This document shows positions 827-11,406 of a stretch of DNA of 11,406 bases, one piece after another. The DNA comes from Thermoproteota archaeon (GTDB lineage: Archaea > Asgardarchaeota > Njordarchaeia > Njordarchaeales > Panguiarchaeaceae), in NCBI GenBank assembly GCA_024720975.1, contig JANJXX010000017.1, positions 1 to 11,406 on the forward strand, given 5' to 3'. The notes below the pieces were generated by a model. It made no database searches, was not told the origin of the DNA, and worked only from the letters and a program-made list of their open reading frames with translations. The stretch's first letter is position 1; each line of letters opens with the position of its first letter. A program made the position numbers and the translations under genes.

Positions 827-2047
827 TCAGGCTCGCCTACGGGTACATTTATGGCTAGGATTGTTTTTGTATTTATAGAGAGCTGTTGTTGGGGCTATTG
901 TTGTGAAGTAGATTATTGCTCCGATAACTAAGACTGTGTTTATGGCTTTAATATTACTTTCCACGCCGACGATGTTTGCTATTATGCCTCCTGTGAGTGT
1001 GCCAATGATGCTTGATATCGTCATTATTATGTTTCCGATGCTTTGGGTTTCTGATTCGTGACCCTCTGTGCTGAAGTCTGTTATTGATGATATTAATGGT
1101 ACATGTATAAAGACCCAAAATGGTACTATTGCAAATATTATTATTGAGACTACATCCCATGTCATTGCTAAATATGTCATGTATAGGCTTCTAGCAATGA
1201 GTCCTCCTATGAGTATCTTTTCTTTTGATGCTTTATCTGCGAGGCGTCCTGCGAAATATGGTGTTATCGTGTTTATAAGACCGGTTATTCCAGTTATGAA
1301 GCCATATGTGGTTTTGGATCCGAGCAGTTTGTACATTTTTATTGAAAAAGGCAATCCGTACAGCGATATACCAAATGAGGATATTGCTGCCGTTAGGTAT
1401 ATTAGTGCTAGGGCTCTCATGTTTCCCGATATCTCGAAGCCCCAGGAGTCCTTGAAGATTTTTCCAAGGGGGACTTTACTGGGCTTAACGCTTTCAACAA
1501 ATAGGGAGCTGAATAATAAGGCTCCCCAAAAATCTAGGACAGCCACTATCAGAGATACTATGGCCATACCATATTGATCTACAAGGTATCCAGATAGAAA
1601 GCTTCCTAAAGCGCCTCCTAGTGAGCTGGAGCCTAGGAAAACTCCAAAGGATGTTCCTGTTTTGTTTCTTTCCATCATTGTTGTTGTGATGGCGAGATGG
1701 GCTCCAGTGCTGACGGATCCAGCAAGACCCAAAATTGCAAATAGTATGGCGAGGTTAATGAAGTTGACTGCATTTGCTTTGAGAATTAGGAAGAAGATAA
1801 AGTATGCTAATGATGCGATTAGTATACCTGCTAGTATGAAACCTTTTCTCCCGCTGATATCTGCCCAGCGACCGAAAAACCTGGAGAGGGTAAAGATCAT
1901 TAAGGCTGAAATAGCGTTCAATATCGATATTTCCAACAGTGTGTACTTAAGGTCTAGTAGATATAGATTAAACACAGTTCCAAATAGGCTACCAGCAAAA
2001 CTAGTTATGATTGAGGTCAAAAGCACTGCCGCAACATTTCTCCTCAA
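827..2047 (-). CDS. Major facilitator superfamily (MFS) transporter
   Basis: 406 aa with about 12 hydrophobic segments. MFS motif A occurs in both halves (FFGRWADISGRK; FAGRLADKASKE). TTG start with GGTG 7 nt upstream. Confidence 0.93.
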   Translation of the reverse strand: MRRNVAAVLLTSIITSFAGSLFGTVFNLYLLDLKYTLLEISILNAISALMIFTLSRFFGRWADISGRKGFILAGILIASLAYFIFFLILKANAVNFINLAILFAILGLAGSVSTGAHLAITTTMMERNKTGTSFGVFLGSSSLGGALGSFLSGYLVDQYGMAIVSLIVAVLDFWGALLFSSLFVESVKPSKVPLGKIFKDSWGFEISGNMRALALIYLTAAISSFGISLYGLPFSIKMYKLLGSKTTYGFITGITGLINTITPYFAGRLADKASKEKILIGGLIARSLYMTYLAMTWDVVSIIIFAIVPFWVFIHVPLISSITDFSTEGHESETQSIGNIIMTISSIIGTLTGGIIANIVGVESNIKAINTVLVIGAIIYFTTIAPTTALYKYKNNPSHKCTRRRA

Positions 2048-2194
2048 GAGTTACACCAATGAGGCGTCGACAGTTGGTAAGTGTAAATTGGATTCATTGT
2101 AGGTTCAAAGCATCTTATATGGTGTTATCTCTTTTGCTCAAATTTATCCTAGGCGATTCATAGGTGATTATGTATGCACTTCAGTGTATTGGCT

Positions 2195-2208
2195 AAAAAA
2201 TAAGAAGA
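2195..2208 (-). terminator. Candidate oligo-T terminator downstream of the structured RNA element
   Basis: Minus strand reads TCTTCTTATTTTTT, preceded by a 6-bp inverted repeat AGGTTT-N6-AAACCT (2212-2229). Confidence 0.35.
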
Positions 2209-2268
2209 TTGAGGTTTTTAATCAAACCTTTTTTACCTAATGATCGATCGAGGTTTTATGGTGGTTGT

Positions 2269-2463
2269 CCGTGTCGTTTATTCGGGTTTGTTTGGGTATT
2301 TTCGAATATCATGGGTATTATTGACACGGGCTTCTCCCTCAGCACCTGCTCATTTGTTGCAGGGTCATCGGGAGCTACATCGACGGGCACCACAGAGCCC
2401 GCCTCAAGGGATAGGCATATTCCGCCTCTGATGGCTATCTCGCCGTCATTGAGGTGAGGGCCT
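2269..2463 (-). ncRNA. Putative structured ncRNA with a K-turn; candidate orphan TnpB omega-RNA / IS200-IS605 right-end remnant
   Basis: Visibly GC-rich island in AT-rich intergenic DNA. On the minus strand: K-turn CUCCC-GAU-GA...CUGA-GGGAG (2374-2334) capped by CCUGC/GCAGG; hairpin GGCGGGC/GCCCGUC (2403-2382); hairpin AGGC/GCCU (2427-2413); 3' stem CCGUGUC/GACACGG (2329-2323 with 2275-2269). A TATA box lies ~25 nt upstream. The overlapping start-less frame IAIRGG...APDDP...LREKPV resembles a TnpB C-terminal tail (from recall, unverified). Confidence 0.55.
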
Positions 2464-2478
2464 AATGTTAGTCATATT

Positions 2479-2503
2479 TGAGGTATAAAAATCTTTATAC
2501 TCA
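2479..2503. promoter_or_regulatory. Palindromic back-to-back BRE/TATA elements (possible divergent promoter or operator)
   Basis: TGAGGTATAAAAATCTTTATACTCA contains GTATAAA-N4-TTTATAC (2483-2500). It reads AAAAATCTTTATAC on plus and AAAGATTTTTATAC on minus. Confidence 0.6.
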
Positions 2504-2594
2504 TTGGTTTCTCTTTTGGTTCTATGCATCTGTAGTAGCTAAAATAGCTTAAAAACGTTCACAAAGAAAACAGTCTAGCTTATTGGTGCTCTGT

Positions 2595-3476
2595 TTGTCT
2601 AGGAGGGCAGCTAGGATTAAGGTCATAACCTCAGCAACTTTGTGGGGATCAAGCTTTCCAATAATACGCATCGGGTTGATGTATATTAGCCCTATCTTGT
2701 TCCTTTTCTTGAGATTCTCGGTCGCGGCAGTAATGCTCCTCTTAATACTGTACATTATAAATGTGAAGCTTAGCCTTCATAAAGTAAATGGTCTAATTAT
2801 AATCTCGGGAATTTTTAACGCCACAGCATATGCTTTTCAGTTCGTTGGTCAGAAGTTTACATATGCCACTAATGCAGCATTAATGGTAAACACAAGCCCT
2901 ATATTCACGGCAATATTTGCACACTTTCTATTGAAGGAAAAACTTACAAAACCTAGAGTTGGTGCAATCGCATTGACATTTTTTGGTGTTAGCATTGTAA
3001 CGTTATGTTCAGGGCAGGTACTTGAATTTCGTATGGTGGGAGACGTGCTCTGCCTTCTTGCGGGAATTTCTTGGGGGTTGTACATGACATTAGCAAAGAA
3101 AATTAGAGGGGATAGTCGCTTTGATGAATTGGAGCTCCTTTTCATCTGGTTCCTCTACACAGCAGCGTTGGGTGGAATAGTTCTACCATTTGAGGGTTTG
3201 CGGATAACTATAAATGTTTGGTCATTGTTTGCTATCTTATACACTGCAGTCATGTGTTCAATAATTCCATATATGCTTTGGTATAAGGCTCTTAAAAGCT
3301 TGGAGGCAACATCTTCAGCGAATTATTTTATGCTTGAGATAATTATTAGTGCTATTATAGAAGCCATGTTTTTAGGCTTGAGTTTTAGCGTATCTTTAAT
3401 TGTTGGAGCTGCACTAGTGGTAGCAGGGGTTTACTTGGTAGATTATTTCTACAGAACCGAAAAAGCGTTGGTTTAG
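2595..3476 (+). CDS. EamA/DMT (drug/metabolite transporter) family protein
   Basis: Two EamA-type halves with typical motifs: LWGSSFPIIRIG, LRFSVA, ATNAALMVNTSPIFTAIFAHFLLKEK, GDVLCLLAGISWGLY, LWYKALKSLEATSS. Start placed at TTG 2595 because GGTG (2585-2588) is 6 nt upstream; the track start is 2583. Confidence 0.93.
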   Translation: MSRRAARIKVITSATLWGSSFPIIRIGLMYISPILFLFLRFSVAAVMLLLILYIINVKLSLHKVNGLIIISGIFNATAYAFQFVGQKFTYATNAALMVNTSPIFTAIFAHFLLKEKLTKPRVGAIALTFFGVSIVTLCSGQVLEFRMVGDVLCLLAGISWGLYMTLAKKIRGDSRFDELELLFIWFLYTAALGGIVLPFEGLRITINVWSLFAILYTAVMCSIIPYMLWYKALKSLEATSSANYFMLEIIISAIIEAMFLGLSFSVSLIVGAALVVAGVYLVDYFYRTEKALV

Positions 3477-4496: not shown

Positions 4497-7400
4497 TTAA
4501 GCTCTACGTCTCCTTAATAGGAATGCTGCTAGTGCTGCTAGGCCTACTATCGCTACTATGGCAATTATTGCCGTCATTGTTACTGGTGCTGGGGTGGGTT
4601 TAACATTAATAATTATAGAATCAACAGTTGTTTGATCCAGTTGATCTTTGAATATTATGGTTACATTGTATTTTCTGACCTCGCTAGCAGTGAAGTTATA
4701 TTTAACTGGAATATCACTCAACCATGCTCCGGAGGCACTTAGGTTTCCATCAATGTATAGCTTATAAGTATTTGGAGATGCATCTCTGGCGGTCCAAGAT
4801 AACTCTATACTTTCTCCTACTGTGATATTAATAATCCTTGGTGGAGCAAATACAATCACTGGAGGCTCCATCGGGTATACTATTATTGGTACATCAACCG
4901 AGTTTACGTTTCCAAATTGGTCGCTGGCGTATATTCGGGCTAGATAGTTGCCAGGGGAGTTTATGAAATCTTGGAGAGATATTGTTATTTGAACGCCTGA
5001 GGAATATGTATTTCTTAGAACCTCTGAATCGTTGAGTAAAATCCAGTATTCTTTAGGACTGTCGTCGTTTATAGTGAATATTAGGTTCTTCTCAATACCA
5101 AGTTCGTAAACAATCGGGGTGCTTACTTGAACTGTTATTATTGGTGGTTTCTTGTCCATTTTACAGTATACTCTAAGTGCTTCTATTGTAACATTTTTGA
5201 AGCCAGTTATATTCACTAATGATAGCCCGTAAATGTCTATTATTGCGGATCTTAACTCACCTAGGGTTGTGTTTTCGTAAATAGTTCTTAGAAATGGTAC
5301 ATCTAAACGCGGACCCTGAAGTGAGACAATAGCGTCGATTATACTGTAATGGACATACGTGGTATTTATCGTAGATTTAATTGCATGTAGGTACTCATCC
5401 ATTGGATATATTGGATAATAAGTCCAAGTATGGGTTTCTATGAATTGTACTGATGAATCGTATATAGTTATGTGAGTTGATTCGTAGAGCATTAATTCTA
5501 GTATTGTAGATGTGGTTATTGTTAAGTTAGAATAGATCGCATGTAAGGTGCTTAAAATAGCCTCATTGAGAGAAACTGACGCGCATAAAGTATGCGCGTT
5601 TTCGATGTGCGTGTTTTTGATTGATCCACTAACGTATAATAGACTAGCAAAGTAAGCATCTCCTGTGGATAGGTCAATATAAGTCGTTGGCATAGGTTCT
5701 GGAGGAATTACCCATGGATTCATTATCATCTCAAGGTTAGGAGCACAAAATATGTATTCTACGGAGAAGTTTTGTATTATGGCATTCTCTGCTCCTAGTA
5801 TAAGCAAATGTTGAGCTGTTAGATTATTAATGCGTATTATGTTTCCTTCCACTGCGGCAGCATCAACATAAACATGTGTGAGTTCAACACATTGTGCTTC
5901 AAGTAGACGGAGTACTGTTGCTATCGTCGAGTTAATTACATGAAGAGCAGCGTTTAAGCCCCAAATTGCCACGAAGGAAGAGTTTATTATTGTTAGGTTT
6001 AACGCTGAAACATTCGTCAAGATCACAGGCTCTGTCATGTTTACATTTGAACTAGCATCAACACTTAGTAAACACACGTAGGTTCCAGGAGGTATGTAAT
6101 TTGAATTTATCACGACATTGCCTGTAGCAGTTATAAGGAAGTTCTCCCAGGCAAAATCCACATTAGAGTGATTTGTTATACTTACGTTCGTGAATATAGA
6201 AATTATTGACCCCACAGTTGAATTCGCAATGTGTATTGTCCCTCCAAAAGAGGCTATTCTATCGATTTCTGACCCATCTACAAAGAGTGCTGTAGCTCTA
6301 ATCTTATGAGCTACGAAATAATCCTGGGGCGTACCTAATTCAACCTCGCCGACATTTGAGTGATTGATTCTTACTGAGCCTTCAAGCGCTTCTATTATAT
6401 TGATGGTAGACTCACTTACCTCAATATCTATCTTATCAATAGTTATTCCTGAAATACTGCTCCTATAGATTATACCGTGTGATTCATCAAGACTCAAGTA
6501 GTTCATTGATGAGTTCTTGATTTCAATTACAGCATACTTTCCGTAAACTCCCTCTAGCGATGAGTTCTCGATTTTGATTTCTGAGAAATCATGTGTCACA
6601 ATCCTAATTAGCGGTTTTATATTTGCTTTAATCGTTAAATTAGAATGATCCTGAAGCTCAATCAGGCTTGAAGATAATGCTGAATAGTTTTCAAAAATCA
6701 GGTTGCATCTAATTGCTCCGATAGAATAAATATTGTTCTCATTTATCAGGATATTTGTTTCTCTAGCAAATATACCAGAGAGTATACCATCTAAATTAGT
6801 TGCACTGGTGATAATACCATTCGATATAACGAAGGAACCATTTATCAGTATAAAAGCAACGTATGCGCGTGTGATAGTAGCATTGGAACCCTCAAAAATT
6901 ATCCTTCCATTGATATTCATGTCTTCGATCATAGTGTTTGTTCTATTTAGATATATGTTAGATTCCACTGCGAGGACTCCCTGGGCAGAGATCGTAGCAT
7001 CTTTGAATTCTGCCTCGCTTTTGAGCAATGTGATATTAAGGTAGAGCTGAGAGCTTTCTACAAATATCCTTGAATTAGAAGTTAATACTGATGAATTCTG
7101 AAGAGTTGAGTTTCTGACATGTAGATCTGTATTATCGTACATGAAGAAAGTTCCAGACATTGTTGTATTTTCAACAAAGACGTTGGATTTAAGCGAGGTT
7201 ACCGTAGAAGCATCGTAAATTTTTGCTGACTCTACACCTATAAGTAGAACATCTGCGCTATAGCGATTAATGATCACAAGAGATGCATTATCTGCAACAA
7301 ATTTACTGAGAATGTATGCAGATTCTATGCTACTAGATACGTTTACGAAGTTGTTGTAATTTGACGTGCTAATCACATGTGTTTCGTTGACTATCAACGT

Positions 7401-8429
7401 ACCATTGTGTATTACAAGATATCCCAATATTGAAATTTCTGAGTTTACTAGGTATGTTATTCCTGGAGAATATAGAGCAACTTCAAAAACGGTGGAATTC
7501 ATGATGTAAGCTCCTGAGTATATACTGGGTATGGATGATTCTATGTACATGTTCGTTTGCAAATAATCTATGAATGAACTTATAATCGTAAGATTGCCGC
7601 GGGAGGTTGAATAGACAGAGTAGATTTCATTTCTTTCTATATGAGCTAACGAGCAATCATGCATTTCTATTGAGTAAAGTTCTGAATTCTTAGAGTGTAA
7701 GTAAGCCATGTTGTACAAAAAAACGTACGTTTGGTTTAGATGGGCTTCGGTTAGAGTGATTCTTGAGGAACCATATGCATAGAACATGTTGGAGGAGCTG
7801 TCGCTATAAGTTTTGTTTAATATTGCAACGGAGTGATCATAGGCTTGTATTGTGCAATGAAAGTTTATTTCTGATATATAAGCAGTAGCGTTATCATGGA
7901 GTTTTATTTCAGACATTCTAAGATCCGCTTCTATGTATAACCGACTGTGTTCAAAACATTCGATCCACGCAGTATAGTAGGTATATGGTGCTCTTATGAG
8001 TGCTTTAGAACTTCCGTTCATAATGATGCTTAATGCGCCTAGGGTATCTCCCTCGGCTAATTTAAGGTAGGAGTTATCGAGCAGCATTATCGTTAGTCCG
8101 CCACTCAGCAGCCTAAAGTTTTCCAGGATGACACATGCGTTGTCCCTTACAATTATCAATGGCGAATCGATAAACTCTACGTTTTGAATGAGAACTTTAG
8201 ATTCATTAGCAACCTCTACTATTCCACTTATAGTGCTATCGCTGATGAAGGCGCTGTAAACAGAAGGTACTGTTTCATATCGGCATCCTGACCAAGCAAC
8301 GATAGGTTCTTCGTTAATTAATTCTGTTTGAGAAAAGGTTTTCGTAATGGGTATATTCTCTGCAATTACGCCGGATGCAGAGTATATGGCTACTATTAAG
8401 ATTAGCAATCCGATGAGGAGTCTTCTCAT
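4497..8429 (-). CDS. Large secreted, C-terminally anchored cell-surface protein (~1310 aa): probable parallel beta-helix plus two Ig-like domains, TM helix and Arg tail
   Basis: Start placed at ATG 8429 because a signal peptide (MRRLLIGLLILIVAIYSASGVIA) begins there and AAGGTAAG lies upstream. Short I/N/S-rich repeats (AYDHSVAILN, AYGSSRITLT, IxNSxI). C-terminal DKKPPII and EPPVI...WTARDASPNTYKLYIDG domains, PTPAP linker, TM helix, RRRRA. Many N-x-S/T sequons. Confidence 0.88.
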   Translation of the reverse strand: MRRLLIGLLILIVAIYSASGVIAENIPITKTFSQTELINEEPIVAWSGCRYETVPSVYSAFISDSTISGIVEVANESKVLIQNVEFIDSPLIIVRDNACVILENFRLLSGGLTIMLLDNSYLKLAEGDTLGALSIIMNGSSKALIRAPYTYYTAWIECFEHSRLYIEADLRMSEIKLHDNATAYISEINFHCTIQAYDHSVAILNKTYSDSSSNMFYAYGSSRITLTEAHLNQTYVFLYNMAYLHSKNSELYSIEMHDCSLAHIERNEIYSVYSTSRGNLTIISSFIDYLQTNMYIESSIPSIYSGAYIMNSTVFEVALYSPGITYLVNSEISILGYLVIHNGTLIVNETHVISTSNYNNFVNVSSSIESAYILSKFVADNASLVIINRYSADVLLIGVESAKIYDASTVTSLKSNVFVENTTMSGTFFMYDNTDLHVRNSTLQNSSVLTSNSRIFVESSQLYLNITLLKSEAEFKDATISAQGVLAVESNIYLNRTNTMIEDMNINGRIIFEGSNATITRAYVAFILINGSFVISNGIITSATNLDGILSGIFARETNILINENNIYSIGAIRCNLIFENYSALSSSLIELQDHSNLTIKANIKPLIRIVTHDFSEIKIENSSLEGVYGKYAVIEIKNSSMNYLSLDESHGIIYRSSISGITIDKIDIEVSESTINIIEALEGSVRINHSNVGEVELGTPQDYFVAHKIRATALFVDGSEIDRIASFGGTIHIANSTVGSIISIFTNVSITNHSNVDFAWENFLITATGNVVINSNYIPPGTYVCLLSVDASSNVNMTEPVILTNVSALNLTIINSSFVAIWGLNAALHVINSTIATVLRLLEAQCVELTHVYVDAAAVEGNIIRINNLTAQHLLILGAENAIIQNFSVEYIFCAPNLEMIMNPWVIPPEPMPTTYIDLSTGDAYFASLLYVSGSIKNTHIENAHTLCASVSLNEAILSTLHAIYSNLTITTSTILELMLYESTHITIYDSSVQFIETHTWTYYPIYPMDEYLHAIKSTINTTYVHYSIIDAIVSLQGPRLDVPFLRTIYENTTLGELRSAIIDIYGLSLVNITGFKNVTIEALRVYCKMDKKPPIITVQVSTPIVYELGIEKNLIFTINDDSPKEYWILLNDSEVLRNTYSSGVQITISLQDFINSPGNYLARIYASDQFGNVNSVDVPIIVYPMEPPVIVFAPPRIINITVGESIELSWTARDASPNTYKLYIDGNLSASGAWLSDIPVKYNFTASEVRKYNVTIIFKDQLDQTTVDSIIINVKPTPAPVTMTAIIAIVAIVGLAALAAFLLRRRRA

Positions 8430-8451
8430 ATATCTTACCTTGTCACATAAT

Positions 8452-8497
8452 TCATTCACCTCGACATGTTCTGTGTAGAAATCATGTCGAGGTATGA
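8452..8497 (-). promoter_or_regulatory. 5'-leader hairpin covering a GAGGTGA SD motif
   Basis: Perfect 11-bp inverted repeat ACCTCGACATG (8458-8468) / CATGTCGAGGT (8483-8493), with inner TTCT/AGAA and outer TCAT/ATGA pairings. Confidence 0.6.
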
Positions 8498-8517
8498 TAG
8501 GGAAGGGTAAAAAAAGC

Positions 8518-8538
8518 TTTATAAATATATCTTTTTTG
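8518..8538 (-). promoter_or_regulatory. BRE/TATA promoter of the large surface-protein gene
   Basis: Minus strand CAAAAAAGATATATTTATAAA: purine-rich run followed by a TATA-like box. Predicted start site ~8495-8500. Confidence 0.55.
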
Positions 8539-8625
8539 GCAGTCATATAGAAGTGAATATAAATCCGCAAATGAATTGCATAAGTTAATTTTACGCATGC
8601 ATATGTGGTATCCTACTCAAAAAGT

Positions 8626-9855
8626 TTAAGGTACTTCATTAAGTGGTAGGGGATATTGCTTTAGTGCTTCTTCGTAAAGTCCTAGAACGAAGTACTTGGC
8701 GGCAGCAAAATTGTCGGGAATGTATCTTAGTATGTCTTGTCTTACTTCATTAGTCAGGTATTTCATTGAGGAGATTGATCCTAACTGACTATACACAGCT
8801 GGGTCTTCTTCTGAAAGCCTCTTAATCTTCGATAGATATTCGCTAATGATTTCTTCATGTCGATCGTGATTTGTTCGAAGCTCGATCTTTGTCAGGACGT
8901 AAAGTATTAGGTGGCTCTGAAGATCCTTATATAAGCTCTTTAGGTACTCAGCTGCGAAACTCTCGTCCTTGAATCTGTCTGAGCGACTTAAAAGATCGAA
9001 GACGAACAGGATGCTATTGATAATGTTGATACCTCTGCTAATGTCTTTACTTAATCTTTCAGGCGATGGTGGTATTATAAAATCAAATATACCATATCTT
9101 CTAGTGGCTCTTTTTCTGAGCTCATTCAAACGTAGTAATATCTCCTTGAAGACCTCTTTTCTTCCCAGAAAGTAAATGTTCTTAGCTAGTACTGGAGCCG
9201 CTTGTAAGAGCTCCAAATCGTCAAGGCTCAGTCTCAGACGCTCAAGGAGAGATTCAACTTCATAGCTTGCTATGCCTTTTCTGAAGGCAGAAGAGACTAA
9301 CAAAGTTGATGTAAACGTTTTTCTAAGTATGTCTGGGATCCTTTCATCTCTTCCGTACCTCCTTACGATATCCCCAGTAAAAGGTAGGACGGAATCCATG
9401 CAGTACCTAAATGTCATAAAGTCAAGCAGGATTGCTATTTGAGGTGAACTATGAAGCTTTAGCCTCTCTTCAAGAAGGTTTATGAATAGCCCCTTGTACA
9501 ACTCTTCAGATCCAGTATATCCTATTACTAAAGCTAGGGTATCTAGATGCTTGTATGAAAATATAGTCGCCTTAGCTATCACACCCCTATTAACCGTCTC
9601 GAAGTTGCTGCCGATATAAATCAGGGCGCCTAGTGGGTGAAAGTTTAGTGCCTTCTCTAACACATCGGTATCAACATGCACTTGCGTGTTGGAATTCAAG
9701 TGTATATGCGCCTCAGCTCTGAGTAGAGGACTCTTGATATAGTTAATGTATTCCTCACACCTAAGTATCCTAACGAGGGAAACTAAGAATAGATCGTGTA
9801 GTAGTGGATCACACTGCAGAAGCTTCTCAGCGAAGTTTAGCATCAGGTTTTCCAA
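8626..9855 (-). CDS. Hypothetical soluble, predicted all-alpha protein (409 aa)
   Basis: Long Leu/Glu/Arg-rich ORF. TTG start with AGGTG at 9863-9867. No catalytic motif recognised. Confidence 0.82.
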   Translation of the reverse strand: MENLMLNFAEKLLQCDPLLHDLFLVSLVRILRCEEYINYIKSPLLRAEAHIHLNSNTQVHVDTDVLEKALNFHPLGALIYIGSNFETVNRGVIAKATIFSYKHLDTLALVIGYTGSEELYKGLFINLLEERLKLHSSPQIAILLDFMTFRYCMDSVLPFTGDIVRRYGRDERIPDILRKTFTSTLLVSSAFRKGIASYEVESLLERLRLSLDDLELLQAAPVLAKNIYFLGRKEVFKEILLRLNELRKRATRRYGIFDFIIPPSPERLSKDISRGINIINSILFVFDLLSRSDRFKDESFAAEYLKSLYKDLQSHLILYVLTKIELRTNHDRHEEIISEYLSKIKRLSEEDPAVYSQLGSISSMKYLTNEVRQDILRYIPDNFAAAKYFVLGLYEEALKQYPLPLNEVP

Positions 9856-9995
9856 TAAATAACACCTAATTACAGTCCCAAGAAATAGAGCTTAAAAATG
9901 ATGAATATATTGGAGCTGTTCCTCTGGTGATTCTACAGAAGAGTTCTTAATCTGTGTGGAGCTGAAGTTATTAACGAAGCAACTAGAATTACGTC

Positions 9996-10009
9996 AAAAA
10001 ATGAAGAAG
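9996..10009 (-). terminator. Candidate oligo-T terminator after the repeat-protein gene
   Basis: Minus strand CTTCTTCATTTTTT begins ~30 nt downstream of the TAG at 10042-10044. Confidence 0.4.
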
Positions 10010-10041
10010 TGGATTTGTGCTTTTTAAAGTTGTCTGGCTCC

Positions 10042-11406
10042 CTACTTTGTTTTTAACTCCTCTGAGATCATTCTCGTTATGAACTCTTTTCTATCTGGTG
10101 CTCGGTATTCGAAGATTCCTTTCTCTATCATCCTAAGTATCTTTATTACTTCTCTAACTTGCCATGGTAGCATTAGCCATGAGATTATCCTATAACTACC
10201 ATATGAGAATGCTGCCATGAGAATCACTAGCATCGGATATAGGAACATATTGGCTATGTATATAGGTCCTACCTTAGTTGAGCCTGAGACATAGTCCATA
10301 AATACTTTGATAGTGGGTTTCGTATAGATAATTTTGTCGTAGGGGATCCATCTACCGTATACTTTAACAGACTCTATGTGTACTGTTATTATCCATACGT
10401 ATCCTGGTGGAAAGTCTGCCCAATCAATTGTGACTGAGAAAACGCCGTATCCTAAGGCATTAGCAGTGTAAATTCTTGAGATTCCAGCTTGCTCGCTAGT
10501 TACTATGATTGCGATGTTAGCATCTTCTACCGGAACTCCATTGTGGAGCACTGATAACGTTACCCTCGATATTTTATGCTCATCTATAAGTTGTACCTTG
10601 AATATGCTCTGTGGAGGAGCCTCTGCAACGTTTACGCTAAGTGTTAATTTTTCAACAGTCACGGCCACTGTTACTGTTTGTGAGCGATAATATTGCTTTG
10701 AGAGGTAGATCTTCACCAGTACTGAAAATGGAAGCTCTGCTGCTTCAAACTGCTGCACTAATTCTAATAACTCGAGTGTATCTATACTTAGCCTGAAGGC
10801 GCCTGAAATATCAACTATAAGAGTACCGTGTTTCAATAAGTAGCCCTTATAGTAAATCTCGAATGATGCATCGGCATCAATTATTGGTTGCTGAGTTTCA
10901 TATTCCATGTACCAAACAGCTATATCTGCATACTCTCCATAGGAAAGCTCATACGTATCTTTCGGAACGACTGCATATGTTGGTATTGGGTTAATAATGA
11001 CTGTCACAGTTATCGTTTGTGGTTGATAGTGGACTTTGGATAGGAATATTGTGACTGAGAATGTTCCAATGAAGCCTATGTTTGTCGTTGGTATAAATAG
11101 CAGGTATGTTCCGTTTCCAAGGTCTAGTAAGCTACCACTTGAATAGTAGTTTACGTCCACACCTATCATTTCGTATGATGCATTGGCCCCAGCTACTAGT
11201 CCGCCAAATCCTAGGTCCTCGTAGTAGAATCTGATAGATATATCCTGTCCATAGATTAGAGATAGCTTGGTAGTTTCTGCGACTGCATATGTTGGTATTG
11301 GGTTAATAATGACTGTCACAGTTATCGTTTGTGGTTGATAGTGGACTTTGGATAGGAATATTGTGACTGAGAATGTTCCAATGAAGCCTATGTTTGTCGT
11401 TGGTAT
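10042..11406 (-). CDS. 3' part of a large membrane-anchored surface protein with tandem ~104-aa Ig-like repeats (5' end outside the window)
   Basis: The frame is open to 11406 (IPTTNIGFIGTFSVTIFLSKVHYQPQTIT precedes the track's GTG 11319). Repeated beta-sandwich-like units end in SKxxYxxQTxTVxV. C-terminal TM helix (FLYPMLVILMAAFSYGSY) and a short charged tail. Confidence 0.88.
   Translation of the reverse strand: MPTTNIGFIGTFSVTIFLSKVHYQPQTITVTVIINPIPTYAVAETTKLSLIYGQDISIRFYYEDLGFGGLVAGANASYEMIGVDVNYYSSGSLLDLGNGTYLLFIPTTNIGFIGTFSVTIFLSKVHYQPQTITVTVIINPIPTYAVVPKDTYELSYGEYADIAVWYMEYETQQPIIDADASFEIYYKGYLLKHGTLIVDISGAFRLSIDTLELLELVQQFEAAELPFSVLVKIYLSKQYYRSQTVTVAVTVEKLTLSVNVAEAPPQSIFKVQLIDEHKISRVTLSVLHNGVPVEDANIAIIVTSEQAGISRIYTANALGYGVFSVTIDWADFPPGYVWIITVHIESVKVYGRWIPYDKIIYTKPTIKVFMDYVSGSTKVGPIYIANMFLYPMLVILMAAFSYGSYRIISWLMLPWQVREVIKILRMIEKGIFEYRAPDRKEFITRMISEELKTK
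10968..11406. repeat. Intragenic tandem repeat, period 312 bp (104 codons)
   Basis: 10968-11094 is identical to 11280-11406 (127 bp); the second copy is cut by the window end. Confidence 0.95.

Follow-up and report, generated by a model that had tools for sequence, protein, structure and literature searches.

Positions 2261–2575 (minus strand) of the window, that is, of the whole 11,406-nucleotide stretch of DNA analysed here, form a 315-bp mini-element that joins a transposon left end to the 3′ remnant of a tnpB gene. Judged by its sequence, the element is a non-autonomous derivative of the IS607 family, probably a mini-IS607 with an omegaRNA that a TnpB encoded elsewhere could use.

Origin of the GC-rich island from the 3′ end of tnpB

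The GC content of the window reaches 0.45–0.49 across positions 2201–2500 against about 0.38 in the surroundings. The minus strand from 2463 to 2261 has a folding energy of −63.1 kcal/mol (z = −3.0), which was equalled by none of 200 shuffled sequences. The initial annotation had described a GC-rich island here, and it is indeed a segment that folds well on the minus strand between 2261 and 2463; the four helices, the K-turn consensus, the closing stem ending GACACGG, the TATA-like box and the start-less frame of 71 codons that were listed with it are all present.

The genome searched was the window's own hot-spring Thermoproteota MAG assembly (1.36 Mb, 81% complete). It holds about ten copies of the island with 74–87% identity, and among them there is a single full-length tnpB (C26:52139–53449 in G000; also L009:2640–3950). 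The 437-aa product of this gene, P0001, scores 105 bits with the NCBIfam model guided_TnpB and matches Pfam PF07282 and, by sequence, Cas12f and TnpB structures. Its residues 378–437 align by tblastn with window positions 2471–2295 at 70% identity (E = 1e-16). The window island thus corresponds to the final ~60 codons of tnpB plus a non-coding tail, and the copies other than the full-length one keep only the last 25–77 tnpB codons.

The homology of the window to tnpB begins immediately past the RuvC-III motif. At its other border the homology of the island stops abruptly at 2261 with ...CACGGACAACCAC, and unrelated sequence lies beyond in each copy. These results agree with three points of the initial annotation: a resemblance to a TnpB omegaRNA overlapping a tnpB 3′ end was noticed in the sequence, deletion of the tnpB coding region up to the RuvC-III motif was proposed, and the genome search suggested there for matches at tnpB 3′ ends was positive, with similarity ending at 2261. 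The end of similarity had been predicted at ~2269; the repeat ends slightly beyond, at 2261.

Could the island instead be an ordinary cellular K-turn sRNA (C/D-box, H/ACA-like or of another L7Ae RNP) or a small protein gene that has nothing to do with transposons? Its K-turn consensus, its GC-rich fold in the AT-rich genome of a thermophile and its open 71-codon frame would suit such a gene. We consider this explanation almost certainly wrong, because the island shares homology with the tnpB 3′ end and occurs in multiple copies with transposon ends, because Rfam gave no credible family either at gathering threshold or with E relaxed to 10, and because its frame lacks a start codon and has no Pfam match. 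A search of the island with ARAGORN gave no tRNA.

The stop-to-stop frame (2256–2471, minus strand), which contains the peptide quoted in the initial annotation, was also evaluated as a small-protein gene in its own right. It was rejected as such, being start-less, without a Pfam match when searched alone, and homologous to the TnpB C-terminus.

Architecture of the mini-element

The element and its parts have the following positions in the window.

2261–2575, minus strand: whole mini-element, 315 bp (left end, spacer, and tnpB 3′ remnant with omegaRNA scaffold)
2511–2575, minus strand: left end (LE), ~65 nt, common to the full-length element and other mini-copies
2548–2555, minus strand: TATA-like LE box TTTTTAAG with a purine-rich stretch before it; 19 LEs of relatives conserve the box
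2537–2549, minus strand: LE palindrome AGCTA-TTT-TAGCT, directly past the TATA-like box; conserved across LEs
2464–2510, minus strand: 47-nt spacer specific to a three-copy subfamily
2484–2491, minus strand: second TATA-like box TTTTTATA, a putative promoter ~26 nt upstream of the scaffold 5′ edge (~2462)
2295–2471, minus strand: TnpB C-terminus remnant, an open frame without start codon
2256–2471, minus strand: stop-to-stop frame of 71 codons

The left and right parts of the element each match the single full-length element, and homology ends abruptly on both sides. Along all 315 nt the element is 87% identical to a second copy on another contig; as this twin has the same architecture, transposition evidently took place after the deletion. 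The element contains no ORF that begins with a start codon. The RNA had been taken for a lone orphan, but it is one of about ten mini-copies and has retained the left end of the transposon.

The LE matches C26:51887–51966, which precedes the full-length tnpB by ~170 nt, as well as 10 other genomic places. In metagenomic relatives the same LE lies ~670 nt upstream of tnpB, with tnpA in between. The LE begins with RGACT and the right end terminates with CAACCAC, while the flanks are unrelated in every copy. The bases 5′ of ~30 left ends, inspected for a TAM, showed a purine at −1 and no other clear motif. A search for the empty site in four genomes of the same genus gave none; the flanking genes there are 68–73% identical and lie on different contigs, without synteny.

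Two TATA-like boxes lie upstream of the scaffold. The whole window has only 4 TTTTTAWR sites, among them the LE box TTTTTAAG, which by the archaeal BRE/TATA consensus is presumed to be the promoter of the element. The palindrome that follows it might be a binding site of the TnpA HTH domain or an operator. The second box TTTTTATA, which is the TATA box of the initial annotation, lies in the spacer. The spacer is shared solely with C25:38655–38692 and, weakly, with C23:98894–98911; beyond this three-copy subfamily it has no match in the full-length element, in the genome or in any fetched locus. The TTTTTATA box is conserved in the C25 sister copy and degenerate in the C23 copy. The LE box is conserved family-wide and the TTTTTATA box is not. 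Three hot-spring metatranscriptomes of the same study had 0 reads over 1700–3200, where both flanking genes are equally uncovered.

An EamA-transporter gene adjoins the LE: the element ends at 2575, and the TTG/GTG gene start is at 2583/2586. On the plus strand the LE box reads CTTAAAAA and stands ~28–35 nt upstream of the EamA start (window 2548–2588). Given this position, the insertion may have provided the EamA gene with an outward-facing promoter, from which its mRNA would be near-leaderless.

The parent transposon is of IS607 type

The initial annotation had drawn on the omegaRNAs of IS200/IS605. The element does not belong to a Y1 family of that kind; it is IS607-type, and its parent carried a serine recombinase. 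The intact order is preserved in a Desulfurococcaceae MAG, where the locus consists of the left end, a 219-aa protein with HTH_17 and Resolvase domains, tnpB and the right end. The tnpA ORF of locus L030 matches HTH_17 (E = 1.5e-14) and Resolvase (E = 4.5e-27) and overlaps the tnpB start. The TnpB of the intact tnpA-tnpB relative is 89% identical to P0001. In the window's own genome, the C11 copy has an N-terminal HTH/serine-recombinase piece of TnpA (with YARVSS) fused by deletion to the tnpB C-terminus. An intact tnpA of the family was not found in the 81%-complete assembly.

Parentage by a Y1 transposase was considered too. It was rejected, as the 81%-complete genome contains no match to the Y1 transposase family PF01797.

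At C25:92215–92781 there is a 189-aa HTH/resolvase-like ORF with YARIIDEE in place of the nucleophile motif YARVSS. It is located ~400 nt from a solo left end (C25:93185–93234) in the opposite orientation and, to judge from its motif, may be an inactivated TnpA.

Structure of the omegaRNA scaffold

The scaffold and the segment next to it are laid out as follows.

2261–2456, minus strand: omegaRNA scaffold, with 36 of 39 consensus pairs intact in the window copy
2456–2423, minus strand: P1
2403–2382, minus strand: P2
2389–2393, minus strand: P2 loop GUGGU, complementary to ACCAC (2265–2261) of the 3′ tail; candidate pseudoknot beside the guide
2334–2374, minus strand: K-turn-like hairpin, with C-stem CUCCC/GGGAG, 3-nt bulge GAU, and GA opposite GA
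2331–2323 with 2275–2267, minus strand: P4, the closing stem ending GACACGG, with one subfamily-specific C/A mismatch
2266–2261, minus strand: 3′ tail of the scaffold
2241–2260, minus strand: flank 3′ of the scaffold, presumptive guide of a read-through omegaRNA

In an alignment of 20 copies and relatives, 91% of cells are paired and compensatory change was detected in 16 pairs. For the larger covariation test, 80 metagenomic loci of the clade were fetched and 63 distinct sequences were used. The terminal GCACGGGCAACCAC was found in 66 of the 80 loci, 20–50 nt past the tnpB stop, with unrelated sequence next to it. Among the 63 sequences 95% of cells are paired, and in 26 of 44 pairs both partners have changed; shuffled alignments gave 11.6 ± 1.7 such pairs (0 of 500 reached 26), and slid partners at most 10. 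The RNA structure drawn in the initial annotation is thereby upheld by covariation within the family. All seven pairs of P2 covary. At one position of P2 the most frequent pair is G-U, which is compatible solely with the sense strand of tnpB. Some K-turn and stem positions are eroded in the more diverged copies (C25c, C24 and C23a). By sequence comparison, the island thus has the conserved structure of a genuine omegaRNA scaffold, overlapping the 3′ end of tnpB and reaching as far as the boundary of the right end.

Two further pairings were evaluated. The GUGGU loop of P2 and the ACCAC of the 3′ tail are invariant in 62–63 of the 63 sequences, so that all cells pair and no covariation is possible. 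The analogy with the ISDra2 omegaRNA suggests that these segments form a pseudoknot next to the guide. The alternative long-range pairing proposed in the initial annotation was tested in the family register, 5′ CUUCUCCC with GGGAGAAG. The two segments can indeed pair in 94.6% of cells, but their covariation does not exceed that of shuffles. In the window copy the deletion junction runs through this pairing, which is therefore half lost (4 of 8 pairs).

The K-turn-like hairpin

In the K-turn-like hairpin the GA at 2366–2365 lies opposite the GA at 2340–2339. Past the G-A pairs, the window subfamily has a 1×4 internal loop and then a 5-bp helix, whereas in most relatives the G-A pairs are followed by an A-U pair, a 1-nt bulge and the 5-bp helix (helix 5, 75% paired). 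Among the 63 sequences, 58 have NNNGA on the bulged strand; on the strand opposite the bulge, 62 have A at 1n and 49 have G at 2n. A switch from U-A to C-G in the C-stem was recorded in 11 of 63 sequences.

The genome contains two genes of the L7Ae family, and on the strength of its consensus the hairpin may be bound by L7Ae. We found no literature that links L7Ae to omegaRNA. A possible K-turn was noted earlier in the bacterial IS607 TnpB guide RNAs derived from RAGATH-18 (PMC11061315).

The cognate TnpB clade

If the RNA is used by a TnpB, then we can ask: what kind of enzyme would it guide? In more than 100 homologs the RuvC-III motif has the form FN[ASV][QH]Y[VI]AC[LF]NL without any acidic residue, N-S-H or N-A-Q standing in place of the canonical N-A-D (P0001 and homologs P0002–P0121). 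The RuvC-I Asp (D199), the RuvC-II Glu (E290), E202 and D203 do not vary, and D386 is almost invariant. E202 and D203 are located beside the RuvC-I Asp, and the nearly invariant Asp is found 9–10 residues past the RuvC-III motif. By their position and conservation E202, D203 and this downstream Asp are candidates for a relocated catalytic residue.

Rearrangements of RuvC-III that are conserved, some of them nearly exclusive to archaea, have been described, and the clades were argued to be active (Altae-Tran et al. 2023, PMC10691335). The altered motif of the present clade fits these "rearranged, probably active" branches, because the other catalytic residues are invariant. As in those branches, the canonical RuvC-III Asp is replaced conservedly throughout the clade and the other catalytic residues are retained; unlike the largest His-bearing branch of that study, which lacks the zinc finger, the present clade keeps CxxC...CxxC. 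Homing based on cleavage is not assured in a TnpB clade without the acidic RuvC-III residue, and whether TnpB cuts or merely binds decides the role of the guide.

Presumptive guide and host range

The flank at 2241–2260, which would serve as the guide, is an unrelated sequence in every copy and in the 66 metagenomic loci. The window's 16-mer guide has no second genomic site at 0–1 mismatch. For the 16-nt flank guides of 10 copies, no second exact site was found in the genome and near-matches were at chance level.

Copies of the element were not found in four genomes of the same genus. The genome G019, from another family of the phylum and 95% complete, has four mini-copies (L014, L019, L021 and L023) consisting of left end and scaffold, with up to 84% identity. 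Missing from the congeneric genomes and up to 84% identical in another family, the element must have spread horizontally and be a recent arrival in this genome. The best match in G019 to the cognate TnpB is split and only 39% identical; mini-copies can thus persist as relics, since this genome holds four of them without a cognate TnpB. Sequences of the family are recorded from hot-spring Thermoproteota, namely Desulfurococcaceae, Ignisphaera, Zestosphaera, Acidilobaceae, Thermofilaceae and Bathyarchaeia, and the element has spread across host families at 84–90% identity.

Formation of the element and possible roles

The mini-element 2261–2575 arose by an internal deletion in an IS607-type element composed of left end, HTH/serine-recombinase tnpA, tnpB and right end. 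The deletion took tnpA together with tnpB up to just past the RuvC-III motif, and what remained is the left end with its presumed promoter, joined to the ~200-nt omegaRNA scaffold, which reaches the right-end boundary at 2261. Transcription might start from the LE box (2548–2555) or from the second box of the subfamily (2484–2491), and the transcript would fold into P1, P2, the K-turn hairpin and P4 and run on into the flank 2260–2241 as guide. Because the element lacks a nuclease of its own, the omegaRNA could act solely in trans, on the TnpB encoded on C26. If this TnpB were directed to the vacated site of the element, retention of the mini-element would be favoured.

The distribution of deletion junctions bears on this proposal. 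At least five independent junctions lie within ~10 nt 5′ of P1, and 2 more lie within 80 nt; of the five, three represent forms of this genome and two come from a different host family. Two copies, the truncated ones (C28 and C23), are cut inside the scaffold. The clustering of junctions suggests either that selection keeps the guide scaffold complete or that deletions have a hotspot here.

Alternatively, the element could be an inert fossil, a decaying remnant of transposition and deletion that has no working guide and brings no benefit to itself or to the host. Divergence of the copies by 13–26%, the erosion of K-turn and stem positions described above, the missing family tnpA of the assembly and the G019 mini-copies without cognate TnpB are all compatible with decay. 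Nevertheless, 36 of 39 scaffold pairs and the K-turn consensus are intact in the window copy, and its twin of the same architecture elsewhere means that it transposed after the deletion. Neutral decay, moreover, does not predict that independent deletions halt at the 5′ edge of the scaffold. We therefore regard the fossil explanation as unlikely, though it deserves serious weight.

Another explanation is that the RNA has been domesticated, as the initial annotation allowed. A nuclease-dead, TldR-like TnpB would then work with cassettes kept by the host, guiding DNA binding or transcriptional control. The RuvC-III without Asp in more than 100 homologs agrees with this, as do the cassettes with promoter-like boxes and complete scaffolds, and exapted inactive TnpBs are documented (PMC10691335 and PMC10705468). 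Opposed to it are the invariant RuvC-I Asp, RuvC-II Glu, E202 and D203 with the nearly invariant D386, and the mobility, with both ends intact, across host families at 84–90% identity. In addition, the same-genus genomes do not have the element, and the guides are local flanks for which a second genomic site is absent. Domestication is thus very improbable. With guides restricted to a single site, no copies in congeners and intact ends, a selfish mini-element is favoured over a TldR-like regulator.

A bolder version of the trans-acting model starts from the deletions that stop at the scaffold's 5′ edge independently in two host lineages and from the missing canonical RuvC-III aspartate of the TnpB clade. 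In this version, selection would maintain the mini-elements of hyperthermophilic archaea as a pool of guide genes that serve an RNA-guided DNA binder or atypical nuclease in trans, with the K-turn recruiting the host L7Ae as an additional RNP subunit. We hold this to be very improbable. If the guide pool and the recruitment of L7Ae were both true, the system would be an archaeal counterpart of TldR or of omegaRNA arrays with a host protein as cofactor.

Comparison with known gene-less elements and guide RNAs

Gene-less elements with omegaRNAs that need TnpB in trans are known from Geobacillus stearothermophilus (Meers et al. 2023, PMC10055086). Like these PATE-like IS200/IS605 elements, the window element is short, gene-less and multi-copy, has both ends and an omegaRNA, and relies on a TnpB encoded elsewhere. 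The PATE-like elements are bacterial, and their parents are IS605 transposons with a Y1 transposase and subterminal DNA hairpins, whereas the present parent is a serine-recombinase IS607-type transposon of a hyperthermophilic archaeon. For this reason the present element is PATE-like in its working but, strictly speaking, no PATE. A further difference from the Geobacillus elements is that several deletion forms of independent origin occur side by side in the present family. The gene-less omegaRNA design is already known; the host and the transposon family are new.

The IS607 elements with RAGATH-18-derived guides (PMC11061315) resemble the full-length relatives in gene order and in having the guide RNA at the tnpB 3′ end. 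The window copy differs from them in having lost both genes, and its TnpB clade has an altered RuvC-III. The window RNA gave no match to any Rfam model and hence none to RAGATH-18, to the extent that this family is represented in Rfam.

The omegaRNA of ISDra2 (PMC8612924; structure in PMC10097598) likewise overlaps the tnpB 3′ end, stops at the right-end terminus, takes its guide from the flank and has a 3′-tail pseudoknot, which in our case is a candidate. The present scaffold has no sequence similarity to it, is longer (~200 nt) and carries the K-turn-like motif.

In TldR (PMC10705468), a relative of TnpB without the canonical catalytic residue has a guide RNA encoded nearby, and in this the two systems are alike. 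TldR loci are immobilised and target conserved promoters, unlike the present copies, which are dispersed and recent, have intact ends and carry guides that match only their own flank.

What appears to be a new RNA gene is thus the remnant of a mobile element, and annotators should not label it as a cellular sRNA. The family provides a clean set of natural sequences from which to study the omegaRNA of one archaeal clade of IS607 TnpBs, the clade with the altered RuvC-III site, with the exact limits of the scaffold, a structure backed by covariation, a conserved K-turn-like module and a probable pseudoknot. These are prerequisites for testing whether this thermophilic TnpB could serve as a compact editor or binder. 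Independent deletions that cluster at the edge of the scaffold hint at selection on mini-elements to retain a working guide, in line with the idea of a modular system in which guides serve TnpB in trans.

Other arrangements in the genome and the window

Two mini-elements of different deletion type lie 2.4 kb apart in the same orientation at C25:38599–38919 and C25:41335–41660 (L010). The pair brackets two or three ordinary genes in a composite-like arrangement. At C28 a 5′-truncated scaffold copy (C28:38488–38632) is found ~160 nt from an inverted left end (C28:38276–38326), which suggests a rearranged or nested insertion.

Elsewhere in the window, three minus-strand ORFs of 1357, 409 and 425 aa (4497–8570, 8626–9855 and 10042–11319, respectively) have no Pfam match at E ≤ 0.001. 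The only other TTTTTAWR boxes of the window, at 9891–9898 (minus strand) and 10021–10028 (plus strand), stand back to back in the intergenic region 9856–10041 and are probably divergent promoters of the flanking genes.
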